Shown here piece by piece: positions 24,315 to 32,704 of a DNA stretch of 64,000 nt. A program made the position numbers and the translations under genes. The DNA is taken from positions 352,001 through 416,000 of the forward strand of contig JAYFMW010000005.1 in the NCBI GenBank assembly GCA_042408215.1, given 5' to 3'. A model generated the notes under the pieces. That model had not been told where the DNA came from. It saw only the letters and a list, made by a program, of their open reading frames with translations, and made no database searches. The DNA comes from Microcoleus sp. GTDB lineage: Bacteria; Cyanobacteriota; Cyanobacteriia; Cyanobacteriales; Microcoleaceae. Each line of letters starts with the position of its first letter. The stretch's first letter is position 1.

Positions 24315-25334
24315 ATGAACAAATTGATTGTATTTATTTTGCCGAAATCGCTAGTAGCTATTGGGATGTTTTTGGCGATCGCCTATGCTGGTGCTTGTGT
24401 ATTTCTATTTGCAGCGCAAAGCAAGTTTATCTTTTTTCCGACGCGGGCGATCGCAGCTACGCCCGACGATGTGCAGTTGGGATATCAAGATGTTGTGCTG
24501 CCAATTTCCAGTAAAAATGGCGCGCCCGAAAGCGTACACGGGTGGTGGATTCCAGCCTCGCATACCCCCCCCAACCCCCCCTTGCCAAAGGGGGGAGAAA
24601 GAGGAGCCGTTTTGACCCCGCAAAGCGAGGGAGGGACTGCTCCGGTTCCCCCCCAAAGTGAGGGAAGGCCCACTCCGATTCCCCCCCTTAACAAGGGGGG
24701 GTTAGGGGGGGTAGTTTTGTACCTGCATGGGAATGGTTTAAATGTGGGGGCCAATGTCGAACACGCTAATCGATTTCATCGGTTAGGTTTGTCGGTGTTT
24801 TTAATAGATTATCGCGGTTACGGACAAAGCCAGGGCGATTTTCCGACAGAATCTCAGGTTTATGAAGATGCTCAACTTGCTTGGGATTATTTGGTGAAAA
24901 AACGGGGAATTAACCCGAATCAAATTTATATCTACGGTCATTCTTTGGGAGGGGCGATCGCGATCGATCTAGCAGTGCGCCACCCGGAGGCGGCGGGGTT
25001 AATCGTGGAAGGCTCTTTTACTTCGGCGCGGGCTATGGTGGACTTCCAAGCCGGGGTGTATCGGATGTTTCCGATAGATTTGTTGCTGATACAGCGGTTT
25101 GATTCGATCGCTAAAGTCGATCGGCTGCAAATGCCTGTGCTATTTATTCACGGAACTGCTGATACTGTAGTTCCCGTTGAGATGAGCAAAAAACTGTTTG
25201 ATAGCGCGCCTGAACCCAAACAGTTGTACATCGTTCCTGATGCCGGTCATAATAATTTGGCAGAGTTTGCGGGCGCTGAATATCTGCTCATGGTGCGCCA
25301 ATTTTTGGAACATACCAACAAAATTAAAAATTAA
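24315..25334 (+). CDS. Alpha/beta hydrolase (ABHD-type) with an in-frame repeat insertion
   Basis: YLHGNG, DYRGYG, GHSLGG, HGTAD and AGHNN. Confidence 0.9.
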   Translation: MNKLIVFILPKSLVAIGMFLAIAYAGACVFLFAAQSKFIFFPTRAIAATPDDVQLGYQDVVLPISSKNGAPESVHGWWIPASHTPPNPPLPKGGERGAVLTPQSEGGTAPVPPQSEGRPTPIPPLNKGGLGGVVLYLHGNGLNVGANVEHANRFHRLGLSVFLIDYRGYGQSQGDFPTESQVYEDAQLAWDYLVKKRGINPNQIYIYGHSLGGAIAIDLAVRHPEAAGLIVEGSFTSARAMVDFQAGVYRMFPIDLLLIQRFDSIAKVDRLQMPVLFIHGTADTVVPVEMSKKLFDSAPEPKQLYIVPDAGHNNLAEFAGAEYLLMVRQFLEHTNKIKN

Positions 25335-27671: not shown

Positions 27672-29267
27672 CTAAAAGGGAGGATCTGTTGTTTTCGATG
27701 ATTCTGTGAGATAGTTCAGATACCGAGAAATGCGATCGGGTTCTGTGTCAAGTAAACGGCTAGCCCAAGAGTGTAAATTTAGTCGATCGCGCATTTCTCG
27801 AAACACCAGAACATCCGGGTTATGATGGAGAGGAAAAACACAAGCATCAAAGCCAGCAGACTTGAGACGACTGACTGTTTCCTCACCATCTTGCACCCAC
27901 AATTGGCGATTAATGCGAACAGGTTGACAGGAATATTCACCTAGGACAATTCCCCCCACAGACACGCTAGCATCTTCTCCACGATTTGAAAGTTCTTGCA
28001 AAATAGCTTTGAGATGCTTCATTTTTTCAGTGTCTTTTACTAGCTTTCGTGTAAACTTGACAATCACCATTTGTAAAACTGCTACAGGTTTTGCTACTTG
28101 TACAATCTTCACTGGTTCTGGGTACAAAACCTCTGCCTCTTCAGTGTCCAATGGCTTGATTTCCTCTGCCATCTCTACCTCTTTTATTGGCTTTGCATCG
28201 TCTACAATTATCTGAATTTCCTCCCCGTCTTTCTCGATTTTTCCACTAATCAGTAAGACAGCATTCTCTGTAATATGTGAGCCAACTTGTTCATAAGTCT
28301 TGGGAAACACAACAGCTTTGATTTGATGTGTTAAATCTTCTATTTGCAAAATTGCCATCTTCTCCCCTTTCTTTGTCACTACAGGTTTGATAGCACCGAT
28401 CATCACAATAACTGATACTTTCCCTTTTTTATCTGCTAGTTGTTCGAGAGTAACAACATCTGGGTCTTGGTTCATTTGAAGCAAATTTTTCAGGGGATGT
28501 TCTGATACATAAAAGCCCAGCAATTCTTTTTCTAATTGCAACTTTTTCTGTGGATCGTAATCTTTGACTATTTTAGATTTTGGCGCAGACTCATACTTAT
28601 TCGCAGACTTCCCAAAGCTCATCCCACCTAACAAGTCAAATAGATTACCTTGACCGCTTTCTCGGTCTTTTTTCCGGTCTTGTGCCCATTTAATGACCCC
28701 TTCCATGTCCTGGACTAATTGATTGCGGTTGCTCTCAATTTTATCAAAAGCTCCGCATTGAATTAATGCTTCCAAAGCGCGACGGTTGACAGCATGAAGA
28801 TTTACGCGATCGCACAAATCTGGTAAAGATTTAAACTTACCCCCTTCCTGTCGCGCCTCCAAAATATTTTCAATTGCGCCCTCACCCACATTTTTAACCG
28901 CCGAAATCCCAAACAAAATTTTATCTTTAGATCCGGTCATCTTGAGCGGCGTAAAAGTAAGTTCAGAGCCATTAATATCAGGCGGCTCAACCTCAATACC
29001 CAGCTTGAGACAATTGGCGATATATCTCTGTACTTTATCCTGGTCGCCACTGTTAGCAGTCAACAGTGCAGCCATGTATTCTACAGTAAAATTTGCCTTT
29101 AAATAAGCAGTTTGATAAGTGATATAGGCATAGGCCATTGAATGGGATTTATTAAAGCAATTAGATACCACCAGACTATTTTCTAGCGTAAAATTATGGT
29201 CTTTTTCAACACCAATGTCATATACCTCTTGAGTTCCTATTGATTTTCTACTAATAATTTTAACCAT
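27672..29267 (-). CDS. dnaE: DNA polymerase III alpha, C-terminal half, starting with a 36-aa split intein IntC
   Basis: MVKIISRK...VYDIGV...HNF...SN|CFNKSH; HhH and OB-fold regions; AGGAG RBS before ATG 29267. Confidence 0.95.
   Translation of the reverse strand: MVKIISRKSIGTQEVYDIGVEKDHNFTLENSLVVSNCFNKSHSMAYAYITYQTAYLKANFTVEYMAALLTANSGDQDKVQRYIANCLKLGIEVEPPDINGSELTFTPLKMTGSKDKILFGISAVKNVGEGAIENILEARQEGGKFKSLPDLCDRVNLHAVNRRALEALIQCGAFDKIESNRNQLVQDMEGVIKWAQDRKKDRESGQGNLFDLLGGMSFGKSANKYESAPKSKIVKDYDPQKKLQLEKELLGFYVSEHPLKNLLQMNQDPDVVTLEQLADKKGKVSVIVMIGAIKPVVTKKGEKMAILQIEDLTHQIKAVVFPKTYEQVGSHITENAVLLISGKIEKDGEEIQIIVDDAKPIKEVEMAEEIKPLDTEEAEVLYPEPVKIVQVAKPVAVLQMVIVKFTRKLVKDTEKMKHLKAILQELSNRGEDASVSVGGIVLGEYSCQPVRINRQLWVQDGEETVSRLKSAGFDACVFPLHHNPDVLVFREMRDRLNLHSWASRLLDTEPDRISRYLNYLTESSKTTDPPF
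29160..29267 (-). other. DnaE split intein C-fragment (36 aa)
   Basis: Block F/G: VYDIGVEKDHNF, terminal Asn, Cys+1. Confidence 0.95.
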
Positions 29268-30039
29268 GTTTATAACTCCTGAGAATAGCCTCAATTTTAG
29301 TCTTCTTTCGTTGCAGTCCCAATTGGGGATATTGATACACAAAATCATAAAATGCTTGTATGTTTTTCCGACTAAATATTCTCCAGTAATAAACTTTTTT
29401 GAATAGATGCTCTTGTACAGAGCCCATGCCTAGGTGCATTGCTAGTTCGCAGGCAAATTCAAAAGAACCGACGATGCACACTAAACCGCCACTTCTGCCC
29501 TTGTTTGCATAAGCACAGCCGTCGCCATCAAAGTAGCCTAACACATAAGACGCTAAATATTTTGAGTTTGGGAAATAAGTAACTCCCGAAAAAGTCCTTC
29601 CTGGTATGATGCCGTAGCCGTGTAAAGAGCTTGCCAGTTGTTCAGAAGAAAAATTTATTCGGTAGTGAGGAGCGTAATTTTGAGGCTGAACAACTCTAAT
29701 TTCACCAGAGTATTGTAGCTCTATTCTGAGCATTTCTGTGAGTTCTTTGTCAATAGATTCAAATGCTACATAATTAGTGTTAGTAACGCAGCCATCAGCA
29801 GCTATTAACCCTAACAAATAAGCTTTAGATTGAGAGTCAATTACATCAAAATAGCTTTCATTTAAATAATATCGGTTTCGCCGCTTAGTATTAATATCAG
29901 CTTCTTTTAAAACTCTTGAAACCGCTCTTTCACTCACGCCAAGGTAGTTAGGAATTTCTCGGCACTCCATACCACGCTCAAAAGCAGAAATGATTTGTTG
30001 CTTGTGTTCCGATTTTAATTTCCTATAGTCGAGATACAT
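29260..30039 (-). CDS. Free-standing double-motif LAGLIDADG homing endonuclease with N-terminal HTH
   Basis: AYLLGLIAADG and YVLGYFDGDG motifs; HTH-like IPNYLGVSERAVSRVL; C-terminal LQRK. Confidence 0.9.
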   Translation of the reverse strand: MYLDYRKLKSEHKQQIISAFERGMECREIPNYLGVSERAVSRVLKEADINTKRRNRYYLNESYFDVIDSQSKAYLLGLIAADGCVTNTNYVAFESIDKELTEMLRIELQYSGEIRVVQPQNYAPHYRINFSSEQLASSLHGYGIIPGRTFSGVTYFPNSKYLASYVLGYFDGDGCAYANKGRSGGLVCIVGSFEFACELAMHLGMGSVQEHLFKKVYYWRIFSRKNIQAFYDFVYQYPQLGLQRKKTKIEAILRSYKHG

Positions 30040-30040
30040 T

Positions 30041-32704
30041 TTATATATCTGAGCGGGGGTTGATTTGTTTTAATTCTAATCCTTTTTCAAAGATTTCGTC
30101 AATGGGCAGCATTTGACCGTCAGCAGTCATAAACTTGTGTTCTTTTGTGGCGCGAATTATCGACCCATCTTCCAGGCAATACTCAAAAACCTCCTGCGGC
30201 CCCCGGCGATGCCACTGTGCAATTGACTGTGTATAAATATGACCATTACTATCAACACTGTAAACACTGCATTGAATTTCTTCCTCAACGATTTTACCAA
30301 TGGCCATCGGCCCATATTCCACAGTCAATATCTGCGTGTCATAGCTCAAGCAATACTCTGCGAATTGTAGCATCTGCGCGAACAAATCTTCGGCAATTTT
30401 TTGAGGGACACCATTCTTAGTTGCCCCATCAATAAATGTTTCCTTTTGTTTCTGCATTTCATCAGCCTTCTTCTTACCCATTGCGCGGCGCAGCAAGTCA
30501 GCTTGACCCAAAGAATAGCCAGCCAAATCTTGAGCCATCCGCATAATTTGCTCTTGAAAACAAAGCGTTCCGTAAGTTTCTTTTAAAATTGGTTCTAACA
30601 GCGGATGGTCGTATTTAACCACCTCTCTGCCGTGTTTGCGATCGATAAATTGTGGAATCAAACCAGCATCCAGCGGGCCGGGACGGTAAAGTGCGAGAAT
30701 AGAAGAAATATCATCCAGACAAGAAGGTTTGATTTTTTTTACTACATCCAGCATCCCAGAAGATTCCAACTGAAAAATACCTTCTAAATCTCCTTTTTCT
30801 AAGAGTTTGTAAGTTTTTTCTACATCTTCAGGCAACTTTTTGTTCCTGGAAAATATCTCTTGAGCTCTGCGTTCTATATCAGAAGGTAAGCCTTCGGCAT
30901 CGATGGTTATATCTTGCGTTTGCTTAACATAATCAACGGTTTTTTGGAGCGTTGTTAAATTCTTGAGTCCCAAAAAGTCCATTTTTAGTAACCCCAAAAA
31001 TTCCAAATCTTCCATGAAATATTGGGTAATCACAGCACCTTCGTTATTCTTTTGCAGCGGTACAATTTCATCTAGGGGCTGGGAAGAAATCACCACACCT
31101 GCGGCGTGAACGCCATAGGTTTTGTTGGTTCCTTCTATGCGAATTGCCATGTCAATCCACTGACGGACTGGGACTTCGGTGCCAGTTTCTGCATTTATGC
31201 AAATTGTATTTTCGTAGTTGTCTCTAAATTCCTGTGCAGGTGTTTCACCGGAAATCATCACTTTGAGTTTTTCCGGTTTTCCTCGCGACACCGGAATCAT
31301 TTTTGCCATCTCGTCTGCTTTTTTGTAGGGAATGCCTAAAACTCTGGCAACATCTTTCAAGACAGCTTTTGATGTCATTCTGTTAAACGTAATAATTTGC
31401 GCTACGCGATCGGTGCCATATTTTTCAGTAACGTATTTAATCATGTCGTCCCGTCTGTCTATGCAGAAATCGCTATCAATATCTGGCATAGATTTGCGTT
31501 CGGGATTGAGAAATCGCTCGAATAGTAGTCCGTGGTGTACGGGGTCTATATTGGTAATTTTTAGGACGTAGGCAACTAGAGAACCTGCGGCAGAACCGCG
31601 TCCTGGCCCTACGGGAATATGGTTATCTCTAGCATATTTTATGTAGTCCCAAACCACTAAAAAGTATTCAGAAAAGCCCATCTGCTGAATCATTTTTAGT
31701 TCGTATTCTAGCCTTTGTTTGTAGATAGGTGGAATTTCATTGCGGGTGCGGGATTTGAGGCGTTCTAATAGTCCTAGCCAGGATATTTCTTCTACATAGG
31801 TATCGGCGGTATGTTCTGGGGGAATTGGGATTGTGGGAATCCGGGCTTCTCCTGTCAGTTCATATCTTGATACTTTATTTGCGACTTCTAGGGTATTTTC
31901 GATCGCCTCTTCGATCGCATCAGCATCTAAATGGTCTTGAAACAGTTGCGCCATCTCGTCAGCGGACTTAAGATACTCAGTGCCGCTGTAGCGCATCCGC
32001 TTGTCTTCTTCAATCAGTTTATTGGTGTTAATACACAACAAAGCATCGTGAGCTTCGACGTCGTTGCAAGAAATATAGTGAGAATCATTAGTAGCGACTA
32101 TTTTAATGTTGAGTTCGCGAGCGATTTTCACAATTTCAACATTCACAATCCGGTCTTCTTGGGAACCGTGGTCTTGAATTTCTAAATAGTAATCTTCCCC
32201 AAATACTTCTTGATACCATTGGGCGACTTCGCGGGCGACATCTAGCTTGTTTTGCAGAATCATTTGGGGAACTTCGCCGCCCAAACAAGCGCTGGTAACA
32301 ATTAAGCCTTCGGAGTATTGTTTTAGGAGTTCTTTATTGATGCAAGGGCGGGCAAAAATACCTCTTTCGGGCATTCCCTTTAAATGGGAAATTGTGGTAA
32401 GCTTTACTAAGTTTTTATAACCTTGGGTATTTTTAGCTAAAACAACTTGATGGTATTTTCTTCTACCTCGAACTTTTACTTCAATGTCGCCGTTGACGAC
32501 GTACATTTCGTTGCCAATAATCGGCTTAATATTTTTATTTCGACAAACTTTGATGAGTTCGATCGCCCCATACATCACCCCGTGGTCCGTAAGGGCGATC
32601 GCGGGCATCCCCAATTCTACCGCCCGTTCAGCTAGCTGCTGTAGCTGAGACGCCCCGTCTAGCAGGCTATAATCGCTGTGAATGTGCAAACCAACGAAGG
32701 ACAT
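30041..32704 (-). CDS. dnaE: DNA polymerase III alpha, N-terminal half, ending in a 103-aa split intein IntN
   Basis: PHP motif [40 protein letters not shown]. Confidence 0.96.
30044..30352 (-). other. DnaE split intein N-fragment (103 aa)
   Basis: Block A CLSYDT; block [10 protein letters not shown]. Confidence 0.95.

Follow-up and report, generated by a model that had tools for sequence, protein, structure and literature searches.

The two halves of the split intein in the cyanobacterial polymerase subunit DnaE trans-splice to give the full polymerase. The halves have been described as lying in separate loci that arose by a single irreversible break (PMC2677866), and all inteins at their insertion point, PolIII-alpha site a, are given as split in the available text of Novikova et al. 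2016 (PMC4760082). The patchy distribution of this intein was noted by Uyeda et al. 2016 and read as one gain followed by convergent losses (PMC5029880), and one Thermosynechococcus assembly without the split intein is on record (PMC9403480). Homing is the cleavage of a vacant allele, and selection for it is lost once targets run out (PMC3229294). In this study, we analyzed a 64,000-nucleotide (nt) stretch of Microcoleus sp. (contig JAYFMW010000005.1, positions 352,001 to 416,000; hereafter the window), in which the N- and C-terminal intein halves (IntN and IntC) in dnaE enclose a gene for a LAGLIDADG endonuclease. Comparison of related sequences makes it probable that IntN, endonuclease and IntC home as one 1.2-kb unit into intact dnaE, and that enzyme loss and unlinking of the halves follow.

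The preliminary description of this DNA had claimed the order dnaE-N+IntN, LAGLIDADG gene, IntC+dnaE-C, and we confirmed this layout (Table 1). The open reading frame (ORF) of dnaE-N+IntN (32704-30041) encodes 887 amino acids, the 784 of the extein and the 103 of IntN, which begins CLSYDT. Its TAA stop codon (30043-30041) is separated by the single base 30040 from the endonuclease ATG at 30039. The endonuclease gene stops at 29260 and is overlapped for 8 nt by the gene of IntC+dnaE-C (531 amino acids; the 36-residue IntC ends SN/CFN), whose ATG at 29267 is preceded, within the endonuclease gene, by AGGAG at 29280-29276. The start called by the ORF caller (29348) lies upstream of the intein start, and 29267 was used. 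The IntN and IntC ORFs are 0.78 kb apart with the endonuclease gene between them, and the reading frame changes at both junctions of the 1193-nt insert between AEY and CFN. The 1-nt gap and the 8-nt overlap suggest that the three ORFs are translationally coupled. Balanced trans-splicing as the purpose of such coupling, put forward earlier, found no support, as the enzyme is often broken or lost.

Table 1. Features of the dnaE locus in the window
Feature	Position	Strand	Basis
dnaE N-extein (784 aa: PHP, Pol III alpha NTPase, finger; ends AEY)	30353..32704	-	Pfam and sequence
IntN, N-half of Npu/Ssp-type split DnaE intein (103 aa and stop)	30041..30352	-	phmmer to PDB 4qfq_A
Free-standing two-motif LAGLIDADG endonuclease gene with N-terminal helix-turn-helix (259 aa)	29260..30039	-	Pfam, model, Foldseek, dN/dS
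LAGLIDADG motif 1 (YLLGLIAADG; D82)	29791..29820	-	alignment of homologues
LAGLIDADG motif 2 (YVLGYFDGDG; D171)	29518..29547	-	alignment of homologues
AGGAG Shine-Dalgarno-like site and IntC start codon, inside endonuclease 3' end	29260..29280	-	sequence
IntC, C-half of split intein (36 aa, ends SN)	29160..29267	-	phmmer to PDB 4lx3_B
dnaE C-extein (starts CFNKSH; HhH and OB-fold)	27672..29159	-	Pfam and sequence
Whole insert IntN-endonuclease-IntC (1193 nt)	29160..30352	-	precisely absent in 39 same-genus genomes

The endonuclease gene stands directly before IntC+dnaE-C in all 29 related loci, and dnaE-N+IntN precedes it in 27; the other two begin too near a contig end to show it. The nearest named loci are from Microcoleus and Microcoleaceae (88-94% enzyme identity), and Chroococcidiopsis FACHB-1243 and one uncultured record follow at 72%. 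Misassembly, which the preliminary description had allowed for, was ruled out, since the cassette order recurs in these 29 loci and one contig of the public run X4 spans window positions 28300-31200. A frameshifted contiguous intein was rejected because both junctions change frame and the layout recurs in these loci. The Microcoleus sp. genome (7.36 Mb, 99.98% complete) holds one dnaE and one endonuclease copy; no second copy of either was found in it, nor the second, unlinked dnaE pair that had been considered. A promoter/terminator scan, not used as evidence, returned 17 and 9 sites (shuffle means 11.8 and 5.3), with no terminator-like site between the three ORFs. Fractured genes (PMC2677866) are described with a hairpin where the endonuclease gene begins; in the window the AUG lies in a short stem, and the surrounding 91 nt fold no better than shuffled sequences (z -0.69). 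The single RNA contig, X14 (240 nt at a depth of 2.3), is no demonstration of expression.

By its sequence, the intein is of the Npu/Ssp type. IntN matched PDB 4qfq_A (phmmer E 4.5e-49), with C1 and the TxxH motif aligned, and IntC matched PDB 4lx3_B (E 4.6e-11). The hallmarks are present (IntN of about 100 residues, IntC of 36, C1, TxxH, terminal N and C+1, residues whose part in catalysis PMC2677866 sets out), and the insertion site is the classical cyanobacterial AEY/CFN site of DnaE. These features, together with the status of this dnaE as the only one in the genome, suggest that the halves trans-splice. The 259-residue protein matched Pfam LAGLIDADG_3 (E 1.7e-10) and has a weak N-terminal helix-turn-helix (HTH). 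Its structural model (predicted local distance difference test score 89.5) shows two LAGLIDADG repeats and, at the N terminus, a helical part that resembles an HTH, and the best Foldseek matches were I-Tsp061I, E-DreI and intein endonucleases. D82 and G83 of motif 1 and D171, G172 and G174 of motif 2 are kept in 51/51 aligned homologues, which were hand-chosen from 120 listed of 206 matches (56-93% identity). Both LAGLIDADG motifs are intact, as the preliminary description had noted.

The endonuclease is under purifying selection. The ratio of nonsynonymous to synonymous substitution (dN/dS) was 0.158 in the enzyme, 0.148 in IntN and 0.05-0.07 in the extein (23 open frames), and mean dS was 0.254 in the enzyme vs 0.404 in distal dnaE. 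The features of a two-motif LAGLIDADG homing endonuclease are present: two helices with conserved acidic residues, the fold, element-less alleles and purifying selection. It is very improbable that the protein has instead been domesticated as a WhiA-like DNA binder, or is kept only because the 3' end of its gene provides dnaE-C with a ribosome-binding site and a place to start. The N-terminal HTH and the presence of WhiA (3hyi) among the Foldseek matches (rank 32) would suit such a role; moreover, the conserved enzyme tail carries the Shine-Dalgarno site and IntC start codon in every family observed, and this 3' end is retained after deletion, in alleles without the enzyme. However, conservation covers the whole protein and not the tail alone, and only 11/178 intein carriers of the class Cyanobacteriia, and none of the empty alleles, have the enzyme.

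We searched 79 same-genus (Microcoleus-like) genomes with IntC and the first C-extein residues. The search gave 39 empty alleles, 29 cassettes, 5 pairs of adjacent halves without enzyme and 2 contiguous mini-inteins; 4 genomes were uninformative (3 without match, 1 with a fragment only), and 2 of the 29 cassette genomes have a contig break just upstream of the enzyme gene. All 39 empty alleles, in which the match started at the C-extein, were fetched. In each, AEY/CFN is uninterrupted and the insert is absent to the base, and among the rows listed the gene neighbourhood equals that of the window. Intein-less and intein alleles are equally common in the genus (39 vs 36 of 79). The preliminary description had seen either a relic of the splitting of the intein or a re-mobilised homing cassette. 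Our data speak for continued movement of the cassette. A 24-mer of the empty site of the window had no match at up to 4 mismatches in its own genome, which is consistent with carrier immunity. A genome with both an empty and a cassette allele (G024) differs between the two at 12/215 nt downstream (the upstream comparison covered 66 nt only); it was read as mixed strains and dropped as evidence. In run X2, the flanks had a depth of 80-91 and a contig covering the cassette alone had 9.2, with no flank-joining contig among those listed; this contrast is only a hint of coexisting alleles. Run X9 gave one weak joint that skips 764 nt. The dnaE C-terminal tail (window 27672-28100) is longer and more variable in the genus, with C-half frames of 535-723 codons vs mostly about 450-500 elsewhere in cyanobacteria.

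Several stages of decay are found. Among the 26 distinct carriers, L111 and L120 have premature stops in the enzyme, L125 has an IS630/IS66 insertion, L119 stops four codons early, and a motif glycine is changed in L124 and L129. In locus L034, the frame shifts close to the 3' end. IS630-type elements or remnants also lie at the TA-rich IntN/endonuclease junction or in the enzyme gene of several loci (end of L384, starts of L034 and L020, L029, L039:6493-9000), and such insertions are a possible first step of unlinking. In the five alleles with adjacent halves, the enzyme is deleted or reduced to its ends, and the spacers are unrelated to one another, which leaves the empty extein junction as the sole common conserved target. 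In two assemblies (L128 and L388, from G020 and G090), an in-frame contiguous mini-intein of a 145-residue type with a common short linker occupies dnaE site a. This form may be a re-fusion or ancestral; the assemblies are incomplete (84% and 89%), and L128 has a frameshift further down dnaE-C.

According to the model published for fractured genes, only the endonuclease gene moves (PMC2677866). Applied here, this enzyme would target the point where IntN and IntC meet, in a contiguous mini-intein or in split alleles that lack the enzyme; the two mini-intein assemblies would offer such a target. We regard this as improbable, because such mini-intein targets are rare (2/79 vs 39 empty alleles) and the spacers of the enzyme-less alleles are mutually unrelated. 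In addition, IntN and IntC distances track those of the enzyme (0.86 and 0.82) above those of the exteins (0.35-0.61), which indicates that the intein halves travel with the enzyme.

The distribution of the cassette within the genus likewise points to movement of the whole unit. A host tree was built from dnaE codons 1-600 (69 rows; 2 of 71, including a duplicate, were left out for their shortness). Cassette state is random on this tree: it needs 21 changes, shuffles average 23.0, and 24% of 500 shuffles reach 21 or fewer. Over 325 pairs of the 26 carriers, the distances of IntN, enzyme and IntC correlate mutually at rho 0.79-0.86 and with dnaE codons 1-600 at only 0.35-0.39; the C-extein beyond the cassette correlates with these codons at 0.70. 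The cassette alignment rejects the three host clades tried (approximately unbiased (AU) test, p 3e-132, 1e-73 and 2e-4), and the host alignment rejects the two cassette clades tried (p-AU 1e-42 and 1e-6). In the pair L113/L029, third-position difference is 0.010, 0.012 and 0.028 in IntN, enzyme and IntC vs 0.273 in the adjoining 34 extein codons. The pattern is opposite in L025/L022 (0.20-0.30 in the cassette vs 0.03-0.065 in codons 1-700). Thirteen of the 14 carriers of one host clade differ by 0.030-0.036 in the cassette, 0.164 in the adjoining 34 codons and 0.042-0.181 in other segments; the remaining carrier, L111, has a different cassette. The last 34 N-extein codons (window 30353-30454) have a synonymous diversity of 0.16-0.18 vs 0.04-0.11 next door, in carriers and empty alleles alike; a recombination boundary or escape variation may account for this peak.

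We also examined an even draw of 401 genomes of the class, 398 of which matched a dnaE-C query. An IntN match was present in 178 and absent in 223. Some families are fixed for intein state (f7 18/18; f23 0/46; f37 0/7) and others are mixed (f30 12/46, f36 7/45, f38 17/40, f25 5/19); when 40 low-scoring genomes were fetched, 39 were empty at dnaE site a and 1 was split. Linkage was counted by hand in the 80 split pairs that scored highest outside the genus. In 26, the halves lie in N-to-C order within 8.2 kb, in 10 (one genus) they lie in reverse order about 14 kb apart, and the rest are far apart or on different contigs. In view of these 26 pairs and of the 223 genomes with no IntN match, the earlier statement that the halves are normally unlinked holds only in part. 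The enzyme profile matched 14/401 genomes. Five of these belong to the genus; other families contributed five full-length matches and one partial match, and the remaining three matches were weak and lay outside dnaE. All 11 strong or partial-length matches adjoin intein halves at dnaE site a, and the 3 weak ones do not. Enzyme remnants persist in G033 and G361.

Elsewhere in the class, the halves are separated by Uma2 genes, by unnamed ORFs or by a Dam-type methylase gene. Where the endonuclease has been lost (L231, L232, L234-L237, L239, L243, L240 and L224), the gap often carries Uma2-type genes (3 Pfam-confirmed) or the Dam-type methylase gene, and it seems to be an insertion hot spot. A conserved ORF of 224-228 residues without a Pfam match lies between the halves in family f30 and in G129 (L228:959-1630, L233:1407-2081, L227, L242, L238). 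In G150 (L385, L386), one contig carries an intact intein-less dnaE and another a short dnaE-N fragment with two IntN copies, which reflects a mixed assembly or a degenerating second copy. Long N-extein frames in L254, L261 and L301-L303 (G159, G112, G208, G407, G472), in alleles with and without the split intein, point to putative extra in-frame inteins at other dnaE sites.

On a class tree of 93 hand-picked rows that favoured mixed genera, intein state changes at least 30 times. Carriers in five families (f1, f49, f40, f31, f30) each have an empty sister, and the f49 carriers branch among families in which no intein was found (f37 0/7). Carrier pairs show 75.5% IntN identity at 73.0% extein identity, vs 64.7% at 75.8% for pairs with unlinked halves; this higher identity may reflect recency or rate.

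Several observations weigh against homing of the cassette. The carrier pairs behind the correlations are not independent, and the group of thirteen was picked from the cassette tree. No co-conversion gradient was seen, third-position distances being alike among carriers, among empty alleles and between them in all windows. Ordinary recombination is frequent (0.04-0.18 in neighbouring segments) and could move the insert without the enzyme. Several endonuclease copies are damaged and, outside the genus, the enzyme lies in dnaE of only 6/394 genomes. Across families, two extein groupings remain acceptable on the cassette tree (p-AU 0.118 and 0.213), and the IntN tree is poorly resolved (2/53 branches well supported). 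The comparison of trees that had been suggested earlier gave significant conflict between cassette and host within the genus but not across families. Transfer between families is unproven; as the deep trees of cassette and extein show no significant contradiction, long persistence within lineages fits equally well.

Some of these points suit an ancient single gain with vertical descent and repeated loss, much as Uyeda et al. 2016 (PMC5029880) read the patchy DnaE intein. The cassette would then be the original state, empty alleles would have spread by recombination from intein-less donors, recombination would also have shuffled cassettes among carriers, and the enzyme would now be near idle. 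The lack of significant incongruence between the deep trees, the missing gradient and the broken enzymes and deletions all agree with it. Even so, we consider it unlikely. An idle enzyme should not keep a dN/dS of 0.16 and invariant Asp residues across 55-73% identity between families, similarity breaks at the cassette edge while the flanks stay coupled, and the position of the f49 carriers is hard to reconcile with a single gain.

If the cassette homes, the following sequence of events can be proposed. An intact dnaE would meet a cassette allele in one cell through DNA uptake or phage transfer. The LAGLIDADG enzyme would cut the uninterrupted AEY/CFN DNA, and repair would copy the whole unit, a 1193-nt homing element built as three cistrons and not as one in-frame intein, into the cut gene. 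The insertion would part the two halves of the target site and so make the carrier immune. One mRNA would give DnaE-N-IntN, then the enzyme by re-initiation past the 1-nt gap, and IntC-DnaE-C would be initiated from the Shine-Dalgarno site and start codon in the last codons of the enzyme gene. The enzyme would later decay via stops, insertion sequences and deletion, leaving adjacent halves and a gap filled with other genes. Unlinked halves, no longer mobile or losable in one step, would probably follow, and rarely a re-fused mini-intein.

Related arrangements occur in divergent DnaE sequences. Three short metagenome contigs (L150-L152; L150:62-2731) carry the cassette in a DnaE only 31-40% like that of the window, with enzymes 41-46% identical. 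In P0273 (contig up to 204 kb), finger, IntN and enzyme are fused in one frame, still split from IntC. Divergence and neighbouring genes suggest that these four are phage-like. The single endonuclease protein had no match among viral contigs, where a profile gave only relatives of 23-33%; in cultured phages, the best places were all below 60% identity, the 20 listed being at 25-33%. Elsewhere in the window, an alpha/beta hydrolase (24315-25334) has a proline/glycine-rich repeated insert near residues 85-130, where close homologues align poorly.

The cassette offers a testable answer to a problem stated in PMC2677866, namely how the best-known natural split intein could arise without a lethal intermediate: the element would arrive already split and would bring along a stop, a ribosome-binding site and a start codon. 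At one site, the predicted stages (empty, fractured with enzyme, without enzyme, unlinked and contiguous) can all be sampled, and a single genus has four of them. The locus also adds a LAGLIDADG family whose natural target is predicted to lie in an essential gene. Should the intein home, it is unsafe to treat it as a once-gained character for placing Pseudanabaena and S. elongatus (PMC5029880). A wider proposal can be made only tentatively, and we hold it somewhat more doubtful than not. The Npu/Ssp-type split DnaE intein would be no fixed ancestral break but would have arisen by decay from a three-cistron homing element invading in already split form; dnaE would have been broken independently on many occasions in the cyanobacteria, including in a deep-branching family, with phage DnaE as a reservoir and the unlinked halves domesticated, and the intein would be unusable as a rare genomic marker in the cyanobacterial tree.

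The patchiness of the intein is already in print, and the locus appears to be a variant of the fractured-gene kind that we did not find described. No description of an endonuclease-bearing cassette at the cyanobacterial site, or of signs of its movement, was found in the literature searched, which took in few subscription papers. The searched text and supplement files of PMC5029880 (files 13-21 and the alignment figure lay outside the search) hold no mention of an endonuclease, and the available text of PMC3919608, PMC7283527 and PMC7765530 has nothing on the layout.

Compared with the described cyanobacterial split DnaE intein (Npu, Ssp PCC 6803; PMC4760082), the window has the same insertion site and the same split point. 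The described trait of separate loci and no endonuclease is absent, since the halves closely surround an endonuclease gene and relatives are empty; it is also absent in the 26 closely spaced pairs among the 80 from other genera. Unlike the all-split inteins of site a in PMC4760082, two same-genus assemblies carry the contiguous form. The fractured genes of Dassa et al. 2009 (PMC2677866) are alike in that an enzyme gene is interrupted by a split intein whose halves enclose a free-standing endonuclease, and the 3' end of the endonuclease gene reaches past the start of IntC, by 6-69 bp in those loci and by 8 here, an overlap that other families share. Their steps III (enzyme loss) and IV (uncoupling) are both seen at dnaE site a. 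However, those loci are metagenomic and were considered phage-derived, their enzymes are GIY-YIG or Vsr-like (the main text of PMC2677866 nowhere names LAGLIDADG) and they use other dnaE insertion points, whereas the window has a LAGLIDADG enzyme in a chromosomal, sole dnaE. In their model the enzyme invades an intein, while here the whole unit seems to enter intein-less genes. Bifunctional in-frame LAGLIDADG inteins (PI-PfuI, Tli VMA) likewise hold an enzyme of the same fold between the splicing halves, and their homing into intein-less alleles is the mechanism also proposed for the cassette. The window differs from them in having three polypeptides and not one, predicted splicing in trans, and an extra N-terminal HTH.

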